A DNA stretch of 11,304 nt, taken from contig JBCBUK010000035.1 in the NCBI GenBank assembly GCA_039818205.1, positions 1-11,304 of the forward strand, written 5' to 3'. The stretch comes from Verrucomicrobiota bacterium (GTDB lineage: Bacteria > Verrucomicrobiota > Verrucomicrobiia > Opitutales > Cerasicoccaceae). This document shows, piece after piece, positions 1 to 11,304 of the stretch. A model generated the notes under the pieces. It saw only the letters and a program-made list of their open reading frames with translations. It did not search any database and was not told the origin of the DNA. The position numbers and the translations under genes are program-made. Position 1 is the first letter of the stretch. Every line of letters starts with the position of its first letter.

Positions 1-3000
1 CCCGCATTCCAAGTGTAGACCCAGCGCGCATCCTCTTGAAGGTTACCATCGGCATCGTAGATTTGGTTGGCTGGATTCACCGGCATCTCTTGCTCAAGCA
101 ATGCATCGGCCTCACGATCGACGCCGCCCGCGCCACCTCCGCTGAGGGTCCCGCGCACCCGCATCTCGTAGAGGCTACCTGTCGTGGCCGATTCCTCGGC
201 GGTTAAATCGTATTCGCCATAGAAGAAGCTGCCGTTGCGCGCTGGTTGCGGCGACGCACCTGCTCCAGATGTCACCACCGGATTCGCGCTTTTCTCAAAG
301 TAGAGCGCCGCCTGCGGATCAGCGCCTCCGTATGCCTGGGCCACCCAGCTCTCGCTGATACTGCCATATTGATTCAAGGCATTGGCACCCGTCGCCCCCT
401 GCCCATCGGTACTCGCATAGTAATCAACGCGAGCAGCACTGGAGCCCTGCTCGGCCCATTGGCGGTTACCAATATCGTCGAATCCGTAGACAAAAGAATA
501 GCCGGGAACCGCAACATCCGTATTCGTCCGTTTGACCGCGCCCGTTAGCTGGCCAAGGTCGTCGTAGGCATAGTCCCAATACTCACCGGTCGAGTGCGTC
601 TCGCGGGTTCGCTGGTTGGCATCGTTGTAGGCGTAGACGAATGACGAAATCGTAGCCGCCGCATGATCGGAATTTGTAACCGAAGTCAGGCGATTGAGCA
701 AATCCCACTGCTTCGAAACAGTTGCCATGTTCGCGGTTCCATTGTTCGCCACAATCTGGTCAACCAGGTAGGAGTTTGCATGGTAGGAATAGGTAAAGGT
801 CTGGTCATCTGCCAATGGGCGCTTGAAGCTTACCGTATCAAGGCGACTTGAATCGGTCTGGTAGGCGTAATCAATCGAGAACTGAGAGACGGCATCGTCG
901 ATCAATGCAACCGATTGATAACGATTGAGGCTGTCTTGTGTCCGCTCAATGACCATGCCTGCGAACGAACCGGTATCGTAAGTTTCTGAGTCCAGCGATC
1001 CGTTCTCATAGGTTAGGGTTCGTTGGCCCGAGGCATCCGTGACCTGTTCGATACGCCCCAACCGGTCATACTCATAGGTGACGGTTGGAGTTCCGTCGCT
1101 GTAGGCCATCGTATGCAGCTGATTGGTATCTGAATGGTAGGTATAAGTCACCGTATCGCCCCGCGCATTGGTGACCACATTGAGGCGACCATCGCCTAGG
1201 TAGGCATACGAGGGACCCGCCGTTCCCGAGACCGAACCAGCCGAATCGATTGCGGCATCATACCACTTCTGATCAAGCAGGCCAGCATCGTTGTAGGTCC
1301 AGGCTGTTATTGCTGCGCCACCGACTCCGCTTCCCGTTGCGTTGTCAAAGTCTTGCCATGTAGTCTGGCTAAGTAGGCGTCCTGCGTAGTCGTAGGCATA
1401 CTCCACGGCATTGGTCCGGTCACCATAAGACTTCACCGTCCGCCCCCGGGCATCCGTCTCATTGATTTGCGTTTTCAAATCAGGCAAGGTAACGGTGGTT
1501 TTCAACCCGCCGGCCAAGAAATCGTAGTCGAGCGAAGTCGTTTGAGCATCGAGTCCAATACCCGTCGCTCCAAGGTCAGGGTCCGGCGTCTCGGCAGACT
1601 TGAGCTGACCGTCGGTATAGTAGAGCAGTGTCGTTGTGCCATTGCGCTCATCCGTGCTCTTCCACAACCGGCGGAAGGAATCATACTGATTGGTTACCCG
1701 CTTCAAGAATGTTGAACCCGCGCTCTGCGATTGCTCAACAAGCAAGCCATCCTCAGTGATCGAGACAAGCGTTGAGTTGTCGGGAGCAGTCGTGGTTGTC
1801 GTGACTCGGCGATTAACCGGGTCAATATCGGTTTCGGTGATCGTTTCCTGGTCATAGGTTGTGCTCCATGAAATCAATCTATCGACTGCAGTTTGAGTAT
1901 TTCGGACAGTCGTAGCAATGTCCGAACCATCAACCTCCCAAACCTCGACCTTATAGAATGAGACTGCAATGACACCCTCGAGCCCAAGCGACCTTTTTAA
2001 ATATGTTGAGGTCACCTTAGAGATACGATCACTACCATCGTAGTCGATGATTCCATTGCCATTTACATCGATAGCTGTCGTGGTTTGCTGCCCCTCGGAG
2101 TTGTAATCGTAGAGAGTCGCGAGGCCACTGTAGTCGACGGACTTCTCGAGCTGCCCTTTGTCGTTAAAATATCGGAATAAGCTAGTTACACCGCTACCGG
2201 GGGAAGCATTTGGACGGTCGACGCGGTATACCCGTCCGAGAGCGTCACGGTAAGTCTTGGTGTATTCTGTGCTCGGAGCTCCGTCTTTCAGTAAACTATC
2301 CGTAGCAGTGCGAACACTGTAGCCAAGGCTAGCATCAACTTCGACACCATAGGTTGTGCGGGAATGCTCAGTTCCCGTCCCAGTAATTTCGTAGACCATG
2401 CCATCGGCGTATTGGCGGACGATACGCGTCGAACCATCACGAGTAGTTGTAGTATCTAGAGTCCACGCTCCATCTTGCGTGCGAGCGTAGGTCGTTTGCA
2501 AGCTGCTCGAAGGCGCGGAATCTTTCCAGCGCGACTGCGTGTTGATGAGCTCCCCCGCGAGATTGTAGGTATTCTTCTGCTCGAGCTGTAGATTCTGGAG
2601 ATCCGGTCCACGCCAAGTTTCAAGGACCCGCCCCGATGCATCATAGACATACTGAGTAACCATCTCGTATGACGAACCAGAATACTCGGTCACATACTCC
2701 TCACGCCCTAATCCATCCCGTTCGATAACCGTAGTATTCCCGGTTACGTCGGTCACCGTGCCGAGTCCGCAACAGGAGTAGGTCATCGACTCGATTGTCC
2801 CATTCAAATAAATATATGTTTGGGGACGTCCAAAGTCATCGAAATCAGCGCCCATCTGATTGGATACAACCAACTCACCCAGAAAAGCTGAATTGCGATA
2901 ACGAGTTTCTGACTCAACGAGACTACCCTGAAAATTGGTTTTTCTAGACGTCCAGGTTCCATTAACAACCGCGGTTGGAGAGCTAAAACTATAAGGCTCA

Positions 3001-5267
3001 CCGGTAGCGACGGTAACCTCGAAACTGGAATTCTGAGCATTCTGATAGGTATAAATGGTCGCCGTTGAATCCGGGTCGATTTGCCAAGCAATCCGACCTG
3101 ACCAGGGGCCTTCATAAAACAAGGCGGATTCCGTTCGCAGATTCGCAGAGTCGTCCCAGCTCGCGTTAGGACTTACACCTTGAATATCGCTTCGTTTGTA
3201 AATCTTGTGACCAATATAATAGCTACCGCCAACGGGCCAATCAATCTGCCAAGATCTCGCAACAACCGTCCCTTGGATAGCTTCTGTTCGCTCAGTCATT
3301 TCTCCGTCAGGATTACTTAGAAAGCTATAGGCGAAGCTCACCACTTTATTCGAAGCTTCTAAGGAGCTCGAGCTGGTGGATAAATCCGGAGCTGGCTCAT
3401 TCAAATATCCGTAAATAGATTTGGATTTACGACCCGTGACTACATCGTATACACACCGTTCCCATTCCCCGTCAGGATAGACGACCTGTTTTAGTCTTCC
3501 ATAGGCAAGACCGTCATTCACTGCATCGTCATAGTAGGAGTACGTGGTGGTTCGAGCTGAGCCCCCAACCTCATCTGGATTAAGTACCTCGCTGACCATT
3601 CTTTCGACCTCAACGCCGTTGACCATAAACGTCCTGTAGGTTTCTTCAGTTACACTTGAGACGGTTACCAATCCAGCGCTTGCTGATTGCTCGGTAATGC
3701 GCTTCGTATACGTATTATTGATCAAGTCTTCAGTGATTTCCACGACTTTTACATACTCCCCATTTCCGACATCAAGCGTCCAAGTATCATTGGCTGAATC
3801 GTGAGTATATTCGTAGCTTCGGGTTGAACTTCCCCGTGTTGTAGTAATCCCCAACGACTCTCCTACTATGCCCGGATTCGTAATCTCATGAGTTACTAAC
3901 GGTACCAAGCCAGTAGTATCGTAGATTTTTGCGGGTCCACCCAAGTCGGGATTCCAGATTATGATCGTGCTGATATCCTCGATACTATCGATGTTATATC
4001 CAGATATTATGTATGTATCTTGATCAATGGCTTGAATATCCCAAAATAGAGTTGGAGTTACCAATTGGCGAGGAGCACCCGAATCCGTCTTGAGAAATTC
4101 CAGGTCATCTGATTCAGCAATGCTCACCCCAAGCCCGATGGGCTGATAGGTAGTCGAATCGATTATGTCGGTAGAAATGAAAAAAGACCCAGCGACACGG
4201 TCATCTTTAATCTTTCCTAGAGAAATACTAAAATCAACCGAACCGACATCGGCGCTTTCTGAGCCTGCAAGCGGGGAACCTGAAACATTGCAGGAACTTA
4301 TCGGGCGGAGTTCAATGGAAGCCAGCCAGGTGTTCTTACCCGATTTTAAAGGGATTTCCTCGCTCACCACATACTCTTCCGTCAGTGAGGCCTCTTGAAC
4401 TTGGAAGGTGTAAGTTTGATTTATCGTCGAAATGGGTCCTGAACCGACTCCAGCAACACGATCTTGCTGGTAAAACTCAACACGGGCCTCATAAGCACCG
4501 GCACATAAATTGTATTTGGCAATAAATTGAGCTGACTGACCTTCGACAACTCGGTCCGTGCGCGGTTCGGCATATGCCAAATTCTCTGTTCCATCCACGG
4601 TTCCGAAGTCACTTCCCCAACCGCGGGCGGCCTTACGCTCATTGGCGTAGCGCAGCGCAATTTCCTCGGTATCTTCATCTAAAAGCTTCAGCTCAACGGT
4701 TTGCTTCGGAATATAGGTTAGATTATGACACTCTTCATGATCGATTTCTGTGTTATGGAATCGCTTTGTAGTATTGTCGACGATCGTATATTCACTTAAA
4801 CCTATTTGACCCCAGTTGCTTTTGGACTGTGAGCTGCCAGGATCTTCAAAGCAGATTCCCTGGATGTGTCGGCTTTGGACAGAACCAGTTTCGACTCCAG
4901 TTATTAAATCTACATATCGTAAACCTTTTACCTGCGTCGCTTCGTACGCATAAATTGTGACGTCATTGTGTGGGTTTAGAAATGAATATTCCCTAGTTCC
5001 AAATAAACCATCCAGTGGTGGCGCCCCACCTTCTATTGCCGGGTCAAACGCCTCCTTACGATAATATCTGGGCGGCGAACTCGGGCTTAGATGCTCCGGG
5101 ATGCCGAAGAGCTTACTTTTCCCGCGCTGACTCGTAAATTCAATACTCTCCAAAGGAATAACGTCCCCTGTATTGCACTGTCCATAAACCGCGGACCCCG
5201 CCGATGAAACGAGGGCTAAGCATGCTAGCCATAAGAAGTTAAATCGCATATTCCGAACTATTTTCAT
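1..5267 (-). CDS. Rhs/YD-repeat protein with N-terminal Sec signal peptide, probable polymorphic toxin. Partial: >1755 aa, C-terminus beyond the left edge
   Basis: Manual translation from ATG 5267 (alternative Met at 5249) gives MKIVRNMRFNFLWLACLALVSSAGSAVYG-QCNTG. I found no stop from 5267 to 3421. Spot checks further on are in the same frame and give Rhs-type motifs: TTTYSYYDD, YGRLKQVVYPDGEWERCVYD, YSCCG, WDYAYDDLGQL, FDDIGNR, ANALNQY and, at 59-3, YDADGNLQEDARWVYTWNA. Probably absent from the ORF track because it has no stop in the window. Confidence 0.93.
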   Translation of the reverse strand, partial: MKIVRNMRFNFLWLACLALVSSAGSAVYGQCNTGDVIPLESIEFTSQRGKSKLFGIPEHLSPSSPPRYYRKEAFDPAIEGGAPPLDGLFGTREYSFLNPHNDVTIYAYEATQVKGLRYVDLITGVETGSVQSRHIQGICFEDPGSSQSKSNWGQIGLSEYTIVDNTTKRFHNTEIDHEECHNLTYIPKQTVELKLLDEDTEEIALRYANERKAARGWGSDFGTVDGTENLAYAEPRTDRVVEGQSAQFIAKYNLCAGAYEARVEFYQQDRVAGVGSGPISTINQTYTFQVQEASLTEEYVVSEEIPLKSGKNTWLASIELRPISSCNVSGSPLAGSESADVGSVDFSISLGKIKDDRVAGSFFISTDIIDSTTYQPIGLGVSIAESDDLEFLKTDSGAPRQLVTPTLFWDIQAIDQDTYIISGYNIDSIEDISTIIIWNPDLGGPAKIYDTTGLVPLVTHEITNPGIVGESLGITTTRGSSTRSYEYTHDSANDTWTLDVGNGEYVKVVEITEDLINNTYTKRITEQSASAGLVTVSSVTEETYRTFMVNGVEVERMVSEVLNPDEVGGSARTTTYSYYDDAVNDGLAYGRLKQVVYPDGEWERCVYDVVTGRKSKSIYGYLNEPAPDLSTSSSSLEASNKVVSFAYSFLSNPDGEMTERTEAIQGTVVARSWQIDWPVGGSYYIGHKIYKRSDIQGVSPNASWDDSANLRTESALFYEGPWSGRIAWQIDPDSTATIYTYQNAQNSSFEVTVATGEPYSFSSPTAVVNGTWTSRKTNFQGSLVESETRYRNSAFLGELVVSNQMGADFDDFGRPQTYIYLNGTIESMTYSCCGLGTVTDVTGNTTVIERDGLGREEYVTEYSGSSYEMVTQYVYDASGRVLETWRGPDLQNLQLEQKNTYNLAGELINTQSRWKDSAPSSSLQTTYARTQDGAWTLDTTTTRDGSTRIVRQYADGMVYEITGTGTEHSRTTYGVEVDASLGYSVRTATDSLLKDGAPSTEYTKTYRDALGRVYRVDRPNASPGSGVTSLFRYFNDKGQLEKSVDYSGLATLYDYNSEGQQTTTAIDVNGNGIIDYDGSDRISKVTSTYLKRSLGLEGVIAVSFYKVEVWEVDGSDIATTVRNTQTAVDRLISWSTTYDQETITETDIDPVNRRVTTTTTAPDNSTLVSITEDGLLVEQSQSAGSTFLKRVTNQYDSFRRLWKSTDERNGTTTLLYYTDGQLKSAETPDPDLGATGIGLDAQTTSLDYDFLAGGLKTTVTLPDLKTQINETDARGRTVKSYGDRTNAVEYAYDYAGRLLSQTTWQDFDNATGSGVGGAAITAWTYNDAGLLDQKWYDAAIDSAGSVSGTAGPSYAYLGDGRLNVVTNARGDTVTYTYHSDTNQLHTMAYSDGTPTVTYEYDRLGRIEQVTDASGQRTLTYENGSLDSETYDTGSFAGMVIERTQDSLNRYQSVALIDDAVSQFSIDYAYQTDSSRLDTVSFKRPLADDQTFTYSYHANSYLVDQIVANNGTANMATVSKQWDLLNRLTSVTNSDHAAATISSFVYAYNDANQRTRETHSTGEYWDYAYDDLGQLTGAVKRTNTDVAVPGYSFVYGFDDIGNRQWAEQGSSAARVDYYASTDGQGATGANALNQYGSISESWVAQAYGGADPQAALYFEKSANPVVTSGAGASPQPARNGSFFYGEYDLTAEESATTGSLYEMRVRGTLSGGGAGGVDREADALLEQEMPVNPANQIYDADGNLQEDARWVYTWNA

Positions 5268-5406
5268 CGTATCAAACTATTAAAATATTGTATGCCGCCT
5301 GAGACACTGTCACGGCCAACACGAAAATCTTTTAGTATCTATTTCTGCTAAAATAATGACTATCAATAAATTCCCGTGTATTTCTCATCATTAAATTGAG
5401 ACTACA

Positions 5407-6174
5407 CTAGCGGGCGTTCCAAAGAACCAGAACAACGTCGGGGTGATCCTTCTCTATTGGATTCTGACCATTTTCGAAATCCGCGCCGTCGAGCAGCCCA
5501 TCACTATCAGTGTCTCCTATACTAGGATTGGAGTGAAAGAGGAACTCAGACCCATTGTCGAGCCCATCCATATCGTGATCAAGGGTCAGACTCGTCAAGG
5601 TTGTGAGGTTAGAAAAATAGAAACTCTCCCACCAGTCTGGGATACCATCACCAGCCCCTGAATTTTCACTATCGATCAATAACCAATTTCCCAGCTCCCA
5701 ACTAACTAAGAACTTAAGTTGGCCGATCGTAGTAACTGCATCTGGCTTGTCATCGCTCGTCGTTGAAGTCCACGGATAACCAGTCGTAGTGTCCACTGTC
5801 ATACTGCTTGGCCAATCGCTAAATCCAATAGCTTGCAAACGGTCATAGATCGGAGCGGTTAAAAATTTAGTCTGCGAATTAGTGACCACCAAATTATTGT
5901 CCGACAGATTCCTAAACCAAGGCAGAGCAACCAATGTATCGATTTCCGTCCCCGCACCACCCACAGGACCCAGGACTGAATCAAAATACTGCCGCGTTGT
6001 GTCGACGACATGCTTGGCTTGGCCTTGGGTCGCAACATTATTATCAGCTGCCGGATTAGAGTTTATCAGCCCATTCGTGGACCACCAGGTAGGAGTCTGA
6101 GCCAACAAGCTACCGCAAAATAGACCTGTAAATAGAAACGACGCCACTGGGCGGGAGAATACTGAGATTTTCAT
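5407..6174 (-). CDS. Secreted 255-aa protein: N-terminal domain with three GQxK-type motifs, C-terminal bacterial thrombospondin type 3-like (DxDxDG) Ca-binding repeats
   Basis: Signal peptide MKISVFSRPVASFLFTGLFCGSLLA|QTPTWW. Motifs DNNVATQGQAK, NNLVVTNSQTK, DAVTTIGQLK. C-terminal GDGIPDWWE, DHDMDGLDNGSE, NPSIGDTDSDGLLDGAD, GQNP. Confidence 0.85.
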   Translation of the reverse strand: MKISVFSRPVASFLFTGLFCGSLLAQTPTWWSTNGLINSNPAADNNVATQGQAKHVVDTTRQYFDSVLGPVGGAGTEIDTLVALPWFRNLSDNNLVVTNSQTKFLTAPIYDRLQAIGFSDWPSSMTVDTTTGYPWTSTTSDDKPDAVTTIGQLKFLVSWELGNWLLIDSENSGAGDGIPDWWESFYFSNLTTLTSLTLDHDMDGLDNGSEFLFHSNPSIGDTDSDGLLDGADFENGQNPIEKDHPDVVLVLWNAR

Positions 6175-6237
6175 ATTACTAGAGCTTGCCGATAAATCGC
6201 CACCGGATTAACTGTACCTAAGGACACCGCCGTTCCG

Positions 6238-7707
6238 CTAGGGAGCAAATGGTGGAATGTCCCCCTGAGGGGTCACTTGAACACTACCTGTAATAACCAC
6301 ATTCCCAGACAAACCGGTGGTCCCAACAACATGGAGGTTGTATTGCGGATCAGCCACCCCGATCCCAATTTCGCTACTGCCAAGATCTCCATAAATCGCA
6401 TTGCCAATATTCAACTGGTCGCTGCCATTTGGGTTCGGCAAGTTTGCGTCATATCCCAGAGAAATATTGTTGCTGCCCACTATTAAATCATCCCCAGCGA
6501 GTCCCCCGATAATGGTATTGTTGCTGCCGCTGGTCATGGCCACGCCCGCTTCGGTGCCAACCAATACATTATGACTACCCGAATCAATATTCAGTCCAGC
6601 ATCCTCACCAACCGCGACGTTTGATTCTCCGGTATCTAGTGCCAGCAACGCGTTATACCCCAATCCAATATTGTAATTAACTATACTACTGGCATCGTCA
6701 CCAGCATACTTCATCGCATTTGTTCCGATAGCAATGTTATAGGCGCCATACTCCCCTTCGAGCAATGAAAACGAGCCAATCGCAACCGAATAGTTGCCTG
6801 TGAGATTGTCTCTAAGAGCTCCGTTCCCAAAAGCAACGTTTCCCGACCCCGAAAGCTTATTCTTCATAGCTCCAGTTCCGAATGCATAGTTGGTATTTCC
6901 AGTCGTATTAAAATGCATTGCAGAAGCGCCGATAGCAAGATTATGATTTCCCGTTGTATTGGAGGTAAGCGCTGATGTTCCGATTGCCAAATTTTTATAG
7001 CCGGTCGTGTTATTTGCGAGTGCCAACTCTCCAATGGCTACATTGTGATCACCTACCGTATTGTCTTCCAGCGTCCGGGAGCCGATGGCAAGGTTACCAG
7101 CGCCGCTCGTCATTGATTGGCTCGAGTTGTATCCGAAAATGAAGTTTCCCCCTCCCGTCATTCCAGAAATCTCCGGGCCAAAGCTTACCGAGTAGTTGTC
7201 GTAGAGCCACAATAAGGTAGAACTGCTACTCCCAATTCCAATTTCACTTCCAGTCGACTGCAACCCTGTAGCCGACAGACTTCCGTCGGACTCAACTAGT
7301 GCCACTGGCTTTCCATCGATCGTTATTTCTAGATCGCGTGGATTCAAGACAATCGCTGGAGCCGGCGACGTCTCATCCATGTCATAAAGCGTCAAGATAT
7401 TAAACTCATCGAGCGACATCTGGTTGAAAGTTCCATCGGTCTTCCAATACCATTTCGATTGCGGCTCCGTTACGGCGAATATCACTTTCCCAGGATGATC
7501 ACCATCTCCGTCTTGGTAAAATTTCGTGTAATAAAACTCTACGCCATCATCAGTCGTTGCCGTAGGATCCTCGATCCGAAGCTGGCCCTCGATTTGTACA
7601 TCGTCGGTTCCGATAAGCTCGAATGACGCATGAGAACTTGTGGACGCGACCAACACCACGGCCAACGGTGAGAGGACAGACCAATAATTTCTGAAAGATG
7701 GATACAT
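6238..7707 (-). CDS. Secreted 489-aa adhesin/tail-fibre-like beta-roll repeat protein
   Basis: Signal peptide ending ...VASTSSHA|SF. About 14 tandem 17-aa repeats of type NTTGxxNxAIGxxAL, similar to YadA-head/Hep_Hag NSVAIG repeats. C-terminal GIGVADPQYNLHVVG fibre-like motif, ending VTPQGDIPPFAP. Confidence 0.85.
   Translation of the reverse strand: MYPSFRNYWSVLSPLAVVLVASTSSHASFELIGTDDVQIEGQLRIEDPTATTDDGVEFYYTKFYQDGDGDHPGKVIFAVTEPQSKWYWKTDGTFNQMSLDEFNILTLYDMDETSPAPAIVLNPRDLEITIDGKPVALVESDGSLSATGLQSTGSEIGIGSSSSTLLWLYDNYSVSFGPEISGMTGGGNFIFGYNSSQSMTSGAGNLAIGSRTLEDNTVGDHNVAIGELALANNTTGYKNLAIGTSALTSNTTGNHNLAIGASAMHFNTTGNTNYAFGTGAMKNKLSGSGNVAFGNGALRDNLTGNYSVAIGSFSLLEGEYGAYNIAIGTNAMKYAGDDASSIVNYNIGLGYNALLALDTGESNVAVGEDAGLNIDSGSHNVLVGTEAGVAMTSGSNNTIIGGLAGDDLIVGSNNISLGYDANLPNPNGSDQLNIGNAIYGDLGSSEIGIGVADPQYNLHVVGTTGLSGNVVITGSVQVTPQGDIPPFAP
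6436..7161 (-). repeat. Coding tandem repeat, about 14 x 17 aa (51-nt period), degenerate at DNA level
   Basis: Examples: NTVGDHNVAIGELALAN / NTTGYKNLAIGTSALTS / NTTGNHNLAIGASAMHF / NTTGNTNYAFGTGAMKN / KLSGSGNVAFGNGALRD / NLTGNYSVAIGSFSLLE. Confidence 0.85.
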
Positions 7708-7988
7708 ACTAAAGATAGGATCTATGGTTGGTGATTTTTTTGATGCGAAGGAAACCCTTCAACGGGAGAAGAAGGTCAGCTAATACCGTACCAACACGGG
7801 ACCAGGAATGAAAATCGAAGACTGATTGCAGGATACCGATATGACAAGCGAAAATATGAAAAATATAAATATAGATTGATACGGAATTTTTCGTCATGCA
7901 AATGGCACATTTATAGATGCGCTGAATCAAAGGCTTACGCATTATTGATACGCTCATATCATTAGCAAAGAGGCAGACTGTGAATAAC
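7708..7988 (-). promoter_or_regulatory. AT-rich intergenic region, probable promoter region for the fibre/TSP3/Rhs genes
   Basis: 7861-7920 is 17/60 GC by hand count. Weak sigma70-like TTGCTA-N16-AATAAT on the minus strand (7968-7941). Direct repeat ATTGATACG at 7875-7883 and 7944-7952. Confidence 0.35.
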
Positions 7989-9155
7989 TTAGTCCAACCG
8001 ATCATCCTCTGATTTACAACTCACCTCCCGAGGCTTCCTATAGATCGTTTCACCGCTAATCACGACGGTTTCGTGCAGGAAGTCGACGCGGTGGAGTTCG
8101 GGGTGCTGGTCGGTGTATTTTCGTCCGTTGCTCAGGTGGACTTCGATCTGGTCTCCGAAGCGAGACATCGAGACCCAATAGACGGGCTCCTCGGTTGGAG
8201 GTTGTGGTTGATCGGTTGACGTGCTGGGTTCTGAGGTTGGTAGCAAATGGTTCTCTGCTTCTGGGCCGGCATCGGCCTGTTCGCTCGTGAGTTGGTCATC
8301 GATCTCGGTGGTGCCGATGATGATGGCGGGCAGCTTGACTGCGAGGAACCAGACGCCGAGTCCGGCGGCGATTAGGCCTCCCCAGAGAAACGGATATGGG
8401 ATGCCCTTGGCGGTTTGGCCTTTATCGGCTTTGCCACCCTGCGCGCTGGTTTCGTAGCAGTTGGCTTGCTCGGGGTTTAGGCGAAAAGTGGTGACCTCGG
8501 CAGGCTGGTCCATGGTCGACCCCGTTGGCGGGCGCAGATAAACGGAGCGCCGGAATACCTTCGGTCCCGCAAACCAGGCATACTTTTCTTTACCACGGTT
8601 GCGCATGACTTCGAAGTCTTGCCCAAGCAAACGGATCTGTTTATCGACCTGCGCTAAGTGCTGGGTGATGAAGATGACCTCATCGCCGAGGTGACGGTGT
8701 TCGGCGAGGTATTCGAAGACGCGGGTATCGGCTTTGGCATAAGCGCGCGATGGCCAAAGTTTATGAATCTCATCGAGGATGAAGATCGTTCCCTTGTAGC
8801 CGGTTTCGACGCCGTCGGCATCCTGATAGAGTTCGGACCAGTCGAGAATGTCGCCGGGCTCCCACATCGGCATAAACTTTTCATGCTTTCGGAAGCGAAA
8901 GAACTGACTTAGGGCTTGGTTGCGATTACGTCCGTTCTCATGAACTGATTGCAGGTATTGGTCATCAAGGAGCACAATACGGTCCTCAATATCGATTCCC
9001 CATTCGCGCTTGTCGGCATACTCTTGGATGCGGTCTAGGTGCAGCGGTAGGTTCGTAACGATGGGCCGTTCATCGTTCTCCAGATAATTGAAGAGCAACT
9101 GCATGACGCGGAGCGTTTTGCCTCCGCCCGGTTTTCCAGTAACAAACTTAATCAT
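7989..9155 (-). CDS. zot: Zot-family / inovirus pI-like morphogenesis ATPase
   Basis: Walker A at the extreme N-terminus (FVTGKPGGGKT), IVTNLPL, Walker B IFILDEIH, Zot signature EHRHLGDEVIFITQHLAQVDKQIR, one TM helix (PFLWGGLIAAGLGVWFLAV), then a Pro/Ser/Thr linker and a small C-terminal domain. Confidence 0.93.
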   Translation of the reverse strand: MIKFVTGKPGGGKTLRVMQLLFNYLENDERPIVTNLPLHLDRIQEYADKREWGIDIEDRIVLLDDQYLQSVHENGRNRNQALSQFFRFRKHEKFMPMWEPGDILDWSELYQDADGVETGYKGTIFILDEIHKLWPSRAYAKADTRVFEYLAEHRHLGDEVIFITQHLAQVDKQIRLLGQDFEVMRNRGKEKYAWFAGPKVFRRSVYLRPPTGSTMDQPAEVTTFRLNPEQANCYETSAQGGKADKGQTAKGIPYPFLWGGLIAAGLGVWFLAVKLPAIIIGTTEIDDQLTSEQADAGPEAENHLLPTSEPSTSTDQPQPPTEEPVYWVSMSRFGDQIEVHLSNGRKYTDQHPELHRVDFLHETVVISGETIYRKPREVSCKSEDDRLD

Positions 9156-9322
9156 TAGTCCGAGAGTCCCATGGATTCACTGCCGAGCTTACGGAAGATC
9201 CGAATGGCAACGATGATGACGACCATGCCCAGCGCGACGCCCGCACCTTGGCCCCACCAAGTGAGCTGTTCTTCGATTGGAACGTTGATCACGACCTCGA
9301 CAGTTTGGGCTAGGTAGTTCAT
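9155..9322 (-). CDS. 55-aa single-TM inovirus minor coat-like protein; likely start 9322, not 9514
   Basis: MNYLAQTVEVVINVPIEEQLTWWGQGAGVALGMVVIIVAIRIFRKLGSESMGLSD: TM helix followed by basic RIFRK. Its ATG overlaps the upstream stop (TAATG, 9324-9320) and its stop overlaps the zot ATG (TAATG, 9157-9153). Confidence 0.8.
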   Translation of the reverse strand: MNYLAQTVEVVINVPIEEQLTWWGQGAGVALGMVVIIVAIRIFRKLGSESMGLSD

Positions 9323-11139
9323 TAGATGATTCCGGCGAGTTGACGTATAATGTAGCCCGAGAAAAACGCGGGCAGTTTCGTGCCTTCGATGACCAAGTAA
9401 GTCAGCGCGACGGATACGAGATGAAAGATTGGAATGAACTGATCGACGTAGTTGGCACCCGCCGCAACCGTTGGTGAAACCGCTTGCAATGGATCGGCTT
9501 GGACGATGTCCCACGAGATGCCATCGATGCGCGAGGATGCGAGCGCGGTTAAGATTGCCGGCGATGAAAGCGTCACACCCATCACCGCCACGATTCCCAG
9601 AAAGGTAAACACCGCGCGTAGGTTGACGGTGATACCGATGCCGAAGGGTTGCGCCGCGATCGCAAGCTCTGTGGAGCCTTGCTTGAAGGGCGTCTTTGCA
9701 AGGTCAACCGTTGTGCTATAGATCGTCTTAACCGAGAAGATATAAACGGCTAGTGTCGTTGCCCAGATGATGAACTCCCTAAGGAAGTAAGCGGCGCCTC
9801 CCCACTCGCCTTCGTCAAAGGGATTGAAATCAAACGTGAATTGAAGAATCTGGAACTTAAACGGGTCCGAGTCGGGCGGCGATCCATCGTAGGATACGGT
9901 TGGCGTAAAGTCCGCAAGACCATAGCTGTCTCCGACCTCACTGAGTAGTTCATCTCGTTTTGCATCGGCGTTCGCTTGGCTAAAGCTGGTGACATCGCTC
10001 TTGCTCACGCCGCCTGGGATTGCGCCGACCGCTTCCTGGCCCTGGGCAACAAGTTCTTCCTCCTTGGGCAACTTGCCTTCGATCGACTCCAAGTGTTCGT
10101 TGGTCTCCGAGCCCTGAAGCTGGCTTTCGTTAAACTCGTTCTTCATGTCGGCGAAGCCCTTCTCGAGCCGGTCGGCATGCTCGGCCTGCCAAACCATGTC
10201 TTGGTCGTGGCGTGCTTGTTGCTGTTGATTGAGCTTCTCAAATCGTGCGTCCTGGTTCTCTTCGGAGCGTTGCCAAAGTAGCTGATCAATTCGGGCGTCC
10301 GTGTCGCGATCATCGGACTGAGCGGCTGCAATCTCTTGCGGTGTCGCGTCAGGATCAATGGGTGTTGATGGCGCTTCGATGATCGTCCAACCGAGGTCGT
10401 TGATCAACGAATTCGGAAAACCGCGATCGGCTTCATTGAACTCTTGGGCAAGAATTGGTGGCTGGTAGTTATCGGGTTCACCGGTTCCATATTGGAGCGT
10501 GTAGACGGTCTCGGGCATATCTTCTTCGTAGAACTCACCTGTGACCAATCGAGGCACCGAGCCAAGGTTAACAACCGAGCCATTGATTAATTGAGCGATG
10601 GATAACTTCCATTCGCCACCGCCGCGAGCGGTCGCTTGAAAGAACTCGTTGGGCCCGAGATCGACTTGTTCTTGGAGTGAGTTTGGAACGCCATTTTCAT
10701 CGATGGCCGTGAAGGTGATGACGTAGCTTTGTGTTATATCGCTACCGTTGTAAAACTCACCCGATGAGGCTTCGTAGAATGGACGCAAGGGCGGCTCTTC
10801 GTAGACCAAGTCGATATAAGTAACCCAAGGTGCCGCTAGTCCGTCAACGTATTCCTGATGCAGCGACCAACTGACAAGAAACTGTTCGTCGGGCGGGATG
10901 ACATTACTGATCGTATGGAAGTCAGGATCGGTGTCTTCGACTTCGCTGTGCTTAACCAAGACGAAGCGACCCGTTTCTGAGGGAAGGGATTTTTGACGGC
11001 CTTCGGTGACCGCACCGGTTGGTGTGACCTGGTCAAAGGTCCACGTTCCGGCATTGGCAGAGGTCAACGCAAGAGCAGCGAGAACGCCAACATAACAAAG
11101 ACGAACCCACAGGTGAAGTAGATGATTTCCATAGCGCAT
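9322..11139 (-). CDS. Inovirus pIII-like adsorption/minor coat protein (605 aa) with extended hydrophobic, pVI-like C-terminus
   Basis: Lies between the major coat gene and zot. Signal peptide ...LAALALTSANA|GTW, acidic N-terminal domains, Pro-rich linker, helical Q/E-rich stretch, pIII-type anchor FTFDFNPF...AAYFLREFIIWATTLAVYIFSVKTIY, then about 130 further aa with at least two hydrophobic segments. Confidence 0.8.
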   Translation of the reverse strand: MRYGNHLLHLWVRLCYVGVLAALALTSANAGTWTFDQVTPTGAVTEGRQKSLPSETGRFVLVKHSEVEDTDPDFHTISNVIPPDEQFLVSWSLHQEYVDGLAAPWVTYIDLVYEEPPLRPFYEASSGEFYNGSDITQSYVITFTAIDENGVPNSLQEQVDLGPNEFFQATARGGGEWKLSIAQLINGSVVNLGSVPRLVTGEFYEEDMPETVYTLQYGTGEPDNYQPPILAQEFNEADRGFPNSLINDLGWTIIEAPSTPIDPDATPQEIAAAQSDDRDTDARIDQLLWQRSEENQDARFEKLNQQQQARHDQDMVWQAEHADRLEKGFADMKNEFNESQLQGSETNEHLESIEGKLPKEEELVAQGQEAVGAIPGGVSKSDVTSFSQANADAKRDELLSEVGDSYGLADFTPTVSYDGSPPDSDPFKFQILQFTFDFNPFDEGEWGGAAYFLREFIIWATTLAVYIFSVKTIYSTTVDLAKTPFKQGSTELAIAAQPFGIGITVNLRAVFTFLGIVAVMGVTLSSPAILTALASSRIDGISWDIVQADPLQAVSPTVAAGANYVDQFIPIFHLVSVALTYLVIEGTKLPAFFSGYIIRQLAGII

Positions 11140-11147
11140 TGTGAGTA

Positions 11148-11182
11148 GAAAATAAAAGGGGCGGGTTTGTCGCCCGCCCCTT
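11148..11182 (-). terminator. Rho-independent terminator after the major coat gene
   Basis: Minus strand AAGGGGCGGG-CGACAAA-CCCGCCCCTT-TTATTTT. Perfect 10-bp inverted repeat (11156-11165 / 11173-11182) plus U-tract, 7 nt after the coat-gene stop. Confidence 0.9.
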
Positions 11183-11189
11183 GGTTAGG

Positions 11190-11304
11190 TTAGGAGCCTG
11201 CCCTTCGGAGGAACTTCTTGCCCACCATCACGGCTGCAACGCCGATGATGATCGTAGCGATCGTTCCCCAGATGGTTTCGACATCGCCCACGGCAGTTTC
11301 AACC
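11190..11304 (-). CDS. Filamentous phage major coat protein (pVIII-like), 5'-partial
   Basis: Frame from 11303 reads VETAVGDVETIWGTIATIIIGVAAVMVGKKFLRRAGS*: acidic amphipathic segment, TM helix and basic C-terminal tail. Followed by a terminator and the pIII-like gene. Not in the ORF track. Confidence 0.85.
   Translation of the reverse strand, partial: VETAVGDVETIWGTIATIIIGVAAVMVGKKFLRRAGS

Follow-up and report, generated by a model that had tools for sequence, protein, structure and literature searches.

The stretch of DNA analyzed here (the window) is the entire 11,304-nucleotide contig JBCBUK010000035.1 (C35 of the source genome G000, assembly GCA_039818205.1) of a Verrucomicrobiota bacterium of the Cerasicoccaceae. 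It contains a set of three genes on the minus strand, which encode a fibre protein (6238..7707, 489 amino acids [aa]), a small protein carrying a domain that we call GQLK (5407..6174, 255 aa), and an Rhs/YD-repeat protein (3..5267, 1755 aa present, 3′ end open), separated by gaps of 63 and 139 bp. Each product has a signal-peptide-like start and no later membrane segment according to the hydropathy heuristic (a basic residue followed by a hydrophobic stretch and a cleavage-like site of small residues) used for export-signal calls on all proteins in this study, and no lipobox was seen in any of the three. RHS repeats in the Rhs protein (PF05593, E = 6e-6) are the sole Pfam match in the set. No PAAR, VgrG, EagR/DcrB, TpsB, TPS, or autotransporter domain was detected in the window proteins by the Pfam scan. 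These open reading frames (ORFs), hydropathy calls, and Pfam results bear out an earlier sequence-only reading of the DNA, which had described three co-oriented genes with these gaps and with signal peptides, and none of the usual delivery or autotransporter domains. Contigs from run X1, which may be the sample of origin, cover all 30 bins of the window and bridge the junction between the GQLK and Rhs genes. Promoter and terminator counts in the window were at chance level.

The fibre–GQLK–Rhs set recurs across Verrucomicrobiota, mostly in genomes for which the searches yielded no gene of a type VI needle. We think it somewhat probable (roughly 0.55) that the three genes encode a secreted, fibre-aimed antibacterial toxin particle.

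Fibre proteins and their common tail

The fibre protein comprises, in this order, a signal-peptide-like start, a small N-domain, ca. 13 Gly/Asn repeats, a short triple-β-helix-like segment, and a C-terminal tail as the putative docking segment. The sequence-only reading of a β-roll fibre needs correction: the repeat period is 17 residues (11 of 12 spacings), and the window fibre has no Pfam YadA_head match. The protein matched a PHROG tail spike (E = 6e-34) and Bd3182 of Bdellovibrio (E = 0.0019 across 38 aa), and its Atlas model reached template modelling (TM) scores of 0.65–0.70 to tailspike-, S74-, and YadA-type models. These matches suggest that the fibre forms a trimer. Neither an S74 domain nor a C-terminal YadA anchor barrel was found in the window fibre. 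A related fibre at locus L025 matches YadA_head with E = 8.8e-41.

The tail motif, derived from a seed set of related loci, has the consensus QGDIxMGxF over 68 fibre ends. In the window it lies at 6241..6270 (minus strand) as an atypical variant without MG; the C-terminal PQGD named in the sequence-only reading thus corresponds to a real family motif, of which the window carries a deviant form. At related loci the fibres are 133 to 1,934 aa long, with unrelated bodies but this common end, and in some of them a coiled-coil neck immediately precedes the tail.

We counted tails and Rhs proteins in three sets of loci (seed, phylum-wide, and other; n = 19, 52, and 13 for tails and 20, 52, and 14 for Rhs), from which duplicate loci (L101–L103, L105, and L106) and loci with short flanks (L001–L020) had been excluded. 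In 61 of 84 loci (16/19, 35/52, and 10/13 by set), the GQLK gene is preceded within 2.5 kb by a tail-bearing ORF, and 65 of the 70 tail-motif ORFs found among 3,514 ORFs occupy this position. The tail is fused directly ahead of GQLK, as a mini-fibre type, at five loci of three genomes (L075, L079, L080, L083, and L087). At four of these five, one or two additional fibre genes with a tail of their own lie upstream, as expected if the GQLK domain takes three tails. Covariation of tail subtypes was considered as further evidence and rejected, since whole operons share descent.

Some loci show further variation. At L080 (2689-7931), a third tail fused to GQLK occurs together with two separate genes for tailed fibres, which possibly points to a heterotrimeric fibre. 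At L067 (4143-4814), the tail motif is internal to the protein encoded directly upstream of the GQLK gene, and the segment that follows it resembles a phage tail-collar domain. A further accessory secreted gene, absent from the window, lies upstream of the fibre gene at L021, L022, L031, L033, L067, L075, and L100; the product has the first rung of a right-handed β-helix-like motif at its end, and a gene for a helical protein of 230–260 aa often follows.

Sequence and predicted fold of the GQLK domain

The GQLK domain occupies residues 26–165 of the 255-aa protein (140 aa; 5680..6099, minus strand) and belongs to no Pfam family. The consensus of 75 homologues contains PxWW, three GQxK, PFYDRL, and YPW, of which PxWW, the three GQxK, and YPW are invariant; the motifs WW, GQLK, YDRL, and PW named in the sequence-only reading are therefore real. 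Downstream of the domain, the window protein has two DxDxDG motifs and a terminal hydrophobic strand. As to the earlier assignment to a TSP3-type calcium-binding protein, the 255-aa protein itself has no Pfam TSP3 match, only these motifs, while 8 of 18 of its homologues carry PF18884. The terminal strand might be donated to a partner, as suggested weakly by 44 of 88 cases versus 524 of 2,213 in the background; we regard this as a lead only.

A profile search with the domain retrieved 2,661 clusters at 50% identity. GQLK was present in 40 of 401 genomes of the phylum and in 17 of a set of 41 relatives. All nine organism-named matches in one search were from Verrucomicrobiota; in a second search this was true of two of three, and the third is assigned to Burkholderiales by one source and to Opitutaceae by another. 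The named homologues include the culturable genera Cerasicoccus, Coraliomargarita, and Ruficoccus. The domain was not found in phage and plasmid collections, nor by a pattern search of metagenome contigs, and the window's own domain was not found in viral contigs. Two IMG/VR contigs carry GQLK and Rhs adjoining tailed-prophage genes.

The AlphaFold model of the domain (predicted local distance difference test [pLDDT] 86.8) consists of three bridge-plus-helix units. Its best fold matches, at modest scores, were triads of the SLH (surface-layer homology) domain, with Z = 6.1 and a root-mean-square deviation (rmsd) of 4.8 over 106 residues, and Z = 6.6 and rmsd 4.2 over 102 residues. The Atlas comparison with SLH gave TM 0.52–0.56, and the Foldseek match to SLH had E = 0.24. 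Foldseek searches of PDB and BFVD gave no match at E ≤ 0.001, and a sequence search against solved structures gave none either (best E = 0.18). At the sequence level, 8 of the 75 members had a match to YadA_stalk, a neck/stalk family of trimeric autotransporters, with E = 2.4e-7 at best.

Since SLH triads were the top fold match in every search, which counts against the toxin-particle reading, we considered whether GQLK is an SLH-like envelope anchor. Such an anchor would bind the producer's surface or wall glycan and hold Rhs, possibly together with the fibre, on the cell for contact-dependent display, a role proposed for MafA toward MafB. In 160 of 164 proteins the domain begins no later than residue 60, and it is fused to many unrelated passengers, which is anchor-like. 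However, none of the 75 members matches Pfam SLH (PF00395), and the arginine of the SLH TRAE motif, which binds pyruvate, is replaced by L, I, V, or Q in the GQLK family. Indirect evidence points in the same direction: in a set of five genomes (G000 and four relatives), neither an SLH domain nor, over the cut-off, a CsaB, with which the pyruvylated wall polymer bound by SLH is made, was found, and G000 had no CsaB match at all. Furthermore, an anchor leaves unexplained the near-exclusive pairing with fibre tails and the tail–GQLK fusions, and SLH fold matches with Z below 8 may reflect a common arrangement. We therefore consider the anchor unlikely.

The fold and sequence matches can be reconciled because trimeric-fibre necks and SLH have a β-layer in common. 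Among the proteins listed in the part of PMC4786415 drawn on here, all are homotrimeric except SLH, a pseudo-threefold monomer. According to the N-capping β-layer rule given there, position β3 is D, N, T, or S and position g is D, E, or Q. All three GQLK repeats obey this rule: β3 is N, T, or S in 55/75, 67/75, and 64/75 members, and g is Q in 75/75, 71/75, and 74/75 members (repeats 1–3, respectively). The predicted GQLK domain may thus be read as three trimeric-fibre necks within one chain, with the pseudo-threefold arrangement of SLH.

Rhs linkage, export route, and phage context

The earlier identification of an Rhs protein with a signal peptide stands in that the window protein is an RHS-repeat protein with a signal-peptide-like start, but the contig ends before the core motif and the tip. 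Compared with its six closest relatives, the protein lacks the last 375–486 aa. The missing end was not found on other contigs of G000, and one X1 contig extends 374 bases beyond the window start. Because the gene runs off the contig, the tip and the immunity gene of this copy are unseen. The first ca. 330 aa are unlike those of relatives: no homologue of residues 28–334 was found in the fetched loci, and none of residues 28–620 in a protein collection. The latter search was evidently insensitive, because local searches found relatives from residue 337 on. A sequence search of the window Rhs against solved structures gave no match.

Linkage to Rhs was evaluated in the 41 relatives with the Rhs core TIGR03696, required on the same strand and at most 25 kb downstream of the GQLK match. 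This was observed for 22 of 41 GQLK hits against a crude expectation of 0.77, and 10 of the 19 hits without a linked Rhs lie less than 7 kb from a contig start and have no room for one. The sequence-only reading had set enrichment of the two small genes beside rhs genes as its test in advance, and this result together with the upstream tails agrees with it. In the fetched loci, Rhs was present in 17/20, 20/52 (phylum-wide), and 9/14 cases. GQLK and Rhs are fused in one protein at L040, L078, L079, L085, and L086, and a signal-peptide-like start was called for 39 of the 46 linked Rhs proteins. G000 itself has a second, larger copy of the module, composed of a gene for a tailed fibre of 1,085 aa and one for a protein of 8,996 aa (C7), GQLK (C36), and an Rhs of 3,411 aa (C9). 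It was joined by contig-end matches, of which C36–C9 is exact and C7–C36 is a 90% repeat from which the junction is inferred. Its 8,996-aa gene (C7 1888-28878) is one of two giant secreted-type ORFs in G000, the other encoding ca. 16,270 aa (C1 377975-426784).

Among the relatives, the Rhs tips that follow a DPxG-type motif are unalike (4 similar pairs of 325). A small ORF follows Rhs in 22 of 27 cases, a count that has no control; truncated Rhs cassettes lie downstream at six loci, and one GQLK protein ends in HINT plus an AHH nuclease. Other cargos besides Rhs, found at about half of the phylum-wide loci with ample downstream sequence, include α/β hydrolases, a deiminase, and lectin/RCC1/Ig chains. 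The fibre–GQLK pair is thus the constant part of the module, and Rhs is its commonest cargo, not the sole one. Separately, signal-peptide Rhs operons that have no tailed fibre occur at L130 (9253-10776), L131 (11967-13410), and L112 (8399-9894), some within mobile elements; they carry a helical protein of 280–300 aa and a calcium-repeat protein.

Several observations weigh against the toxin-particle reading. Rhs is present in 10 and absent in 14 of the 24 phylum-wide loci with at least 12 kb downstream, and several cargos (β-helix, Ig, DUF1800/DUF1501, and RCC1) are not obviously toxic. Of the 97 Rhs cores that the 17 GQLK-positive relatives contain, only 28 are preceded by GQLK, and the Rhs operons of L130 and L131 have a calcium-repeat partner with neither GQLK nor fibre; the pair is therefore not required for these Rhs proteins. 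No Pfam match was obtained for 24 of 28 tips, none passes the cut-off of a named toxin family, and the window's own tip is missing. On the fibre side, 35 of 37 tail-positive genomes among the 401 are GQLK-positive and 2 of 361 GQLK-negative genomes have a tail match, both marginal; the positive half of this co-occurrence is circular, because the ORFs used to train the tail model were those lying upstream of GQLK, and genomes that are related do not count as independent cases. In a folded natural tail–GQLK fusion, the tail region had a low pLDDT of 47–62.

The loci without Rhs, the few recognizable toxin tips, and the giant LamG/FN3/RCC1/Ig passengers found between GQLK and Rhs would also suit a general adhesive surface appendage made of fibre and GQLK, in which Rhs is an optional subunit for adhesion or cell recognition and not for killing. 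We consider this rather improbable: polymorphic tips, small downstream genes, orphan cassettes, and the HINT-AHH cargo are the signature of polymorphic toxins as given in the part of PMC3482391 drawn on here.

Regarding the export route, searches for VgrG, TssC, and PAAR came back empty for all five genomes (G000 is 99.97% complete), and the controls were positive; the sequence-only reading had set use of the T6SS (type VI secretion system) by Rhs against its own proposal. Several secretins were present in each of the five genomes, as were GspE/PilB-type ATPases, the GspE-like ones scoring 624–626 bits, slightly below the cut-off of 630. Searches for TcA and TpsB (ShlB) gave no hit in the five genomes and had no positive control. 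From the lack of T6SS genes and the presence of secretins in all five, the default inference is export by Sec and then by a secretin of the type II secretion system (T2SS) or type IV pilus (T4P) kind. The sequence-only reading had the fibre and the small protein as a spike or adaptor that exports, tethers, or targets Rhs; the linkage supports such a partnership, but nothing points to the module genes themselves as the exporter.

Rhs proteins of diderm bacteria are in general expected to be T6SS effectors or Tc-type C subunits, in which case the neighbours would be unrelated, and VgrG exceeded the cut-off in 3 of the 40 GQLK genomes. This explanation is largely refuted by the signal-peptide-like start of Rhs, by the lack of SpvB/TcB, PAAR, and VgrG in the window and in 13 linked Rhs proteins, by the lack of T6SS genes found in G000, and by the strong conserved linkage of fibre, GQLK, and Rhs. 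T6SS PAAR/VgrG-Rhs effectors, the BC shell of Tc toxins, and WapA have an Rhs/YD cage whose variable tip is cleaved off. Unlike these systems, the present module has accessory genes for a fibre and an adaptor, and no PAAR, VgrG, chaperone, SpvB, or TcA partner was seen.

Upstream of the module on the same strand lies a filamentous-phage morphogenesis block, which the sequence-only reading had left unmentioned. It begins with a gene for a Zot/pI-type assembly ATPase (7989..9155; PF05707, E = 1.8e-21), which ends 281 bp before the fibre gene; the intervening gap (7708..7988) is AT-rich (GC 0.38). The remainder of the block (9155..11304, minus strand) comprises a hydrophobic ORF of 55 aa (9155-9322), a pIII-like protein of 605 aa (9322-11139), a terminator (11156-11182), and the end of a coat-like gene (11190-11304); the pIII-like and coat-like genes were named from position, size, and hydropathy. 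None of the 8 of 31 X1 pieces shown bridges the fibre–zot junction. Related elements, inserted at tRNA genes and all partial in the assembly, occur in G000 at C7 (214559-219386), C42, and C45. The C42 zot copy shares ca. 215 bp downstream of its stop with the window and then diverges into a different secreted gene, and the stretch behind zot may therefore collect cargo. In G000, seven tRNA genes within ca. 1 kb (C16 13079-14107) form an array typical of mobile elements.

This position, which is that of ctxAB behind zot, raises the question of whether the module is cargo or a virion decoration of the prophage, perhaps using the phage assembly pore. The orientation and proximity of zot, the secreted gene behind the C42 copy, and a fall in GC content from 0.54 to 0.48 are in favor of this. 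On the other hand, fibre, GQLK, and Rhs are all missing downstream of zot at four related loci (at one of which the contig ends after ca. 600 bp), we noted no neighbour of the zot type when listing the ORFs of 20 seed loci, and the second module copy of G000 does not adjoin zot. The window copy may have arrived with the phage element; the module probably does not depend on it, the phage block being incidental, and a functional link is very improbable.

Proposed particle and its relation to known systems

In the proposed toxin particle, each chain would cross the inner membrane via Sec. The fibre would fold as a trimer with a variable, target-recognizing body and a constant tail, and the three β-layer/helix repeats of GQLK would mimic a neck-to-stalk junction in one chain and clasp three fibre tails. 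A single-chain GQLK would in this way resolve the 3:1 symmetry mismatch between a trimeric fibre and a monomeric Rhs cage. In the GQLK protein, the calcium-type repeats and the terminal strand would bind the N-terminus of Rhs, unless both are one protein. The assembled particle would leave the periplasm through a secretin of the T2SS/T4P type, binding of the fibre to its target would lead to release of the self-cleaved C-terminal Rhs tip, and the small downstream gene would confer immunity. The HINT-AHH nuclease, α/β hydrolases, and lectin chains might stand in for Rhs. Fibre–GQLK binding, export, and Rhs toxicity are predicted steps. A broader proposal, which we hold more tentatively, is a lineage-wide, needle-free particle in which the pseudo-trimeric neck joins any trimeric phage-like fibre with the ten-residue tail to a monomeric Rhs cage or another effector; it would serve Verrucomicrobiota without a T6SS as their principal means of antagonism and be a diderm counterpart, built with a phage-type fibre, of umbrella toxins. 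With a common tail and neck joining fibre and cargo, the aiming part and the warhead would evolve independently.

No description of the operon or of the domain was found in the literature, supplements (e.g., Additional file 1 of PMC3482391) and subscription papers lying outside the search. Judged by its sequence features, the module appears to belong among Sec-exported polymorphic toxins, a route for which the survey of Zhang et al. (2012; PMC3482391), in the part drawn on here, lists no neighbourhood genes. It shares with the MafA/MafB, Microscilla-N, and APD1/APD2 systems described there a signal peptide followed by a lineage-restricted domain, Rhs repeats, a variable tip, a small downstream gene, orphan cassettes, and an upstream partner gene. 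In contrast to the lipoproteins MafA and APD, only 2 of 221 GQLK proteins have a lipobox. That part of the survey names no such domain of Verrucomicrobia, and the partner here is a predicted trimeric fibre, variable with a constant tail.

The module also resembles UmbA/UmbB/UmbC of Streptomyces, in which, as far as the part of PMC11062931 drawn on here describes them, a separately exported targeting protein, a small adaptor, and a repeat-containing polymorphic toxin are encoded together. There, a terminal peptide motif docks in a groove of its partner, and the fibres here end in a short motif as well. Unlike Umb, the present module has Rhs in place of ALF repeats, a phage-like fibre in place of trypsin-lectin spokes, and a diderm host, and its particle is a predicted one. 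No Pfam domains of Umb parts (ALF repeats, trypsin-lectin UmbA, and UmbB) were detected in the window or the linked proteins.

With trimeric autotransporter necks and SLH, as treated in part in PMC4786415, GQLK shares the β-layer sequence rule, and its model resembles the pseudo-threefold SLH monomer. It has a neck-like GQ(L/A)K where SLH has TRAE. The module differs from trimeric autotransporters in having no anchor barrel and in the apparent placement of three necks in one chain, encoded by a gene separate from that of the fibre. The fibres themselves are comparable to phage tailspikes and to the MAT fibres of Bdellovibrio such as Bd3182 (PMC10769870, in the part drawn on here), which are signal-peptide-bearing, mosaic, trimeric, phage-like recognition fibres. 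In contrast to MAT fibres, no S74 was found, the constant part is a C-terminal tail and not an N-terminal domain of 130 aa, and a toxin-type cargo is linked.

How, in the absence of a type VI needle, the signal-peptide Rhs toxins of diderms locate the cells they target and get into them is an open question, for which this locus supplies partner genes. It also yields a new domain family and a specific putative docking motif in culturable genera, and the Rhs tips that Pfam does not match are a reservoir from which new toxin domains may come. If the proposed particle is real, GQLK would be a second single-chain pseudo-threefold β-layer domain beside SLH, and Verrucomicrobiota, which are abundant in sea, soil, and sediment, would gain a competition system of their own.

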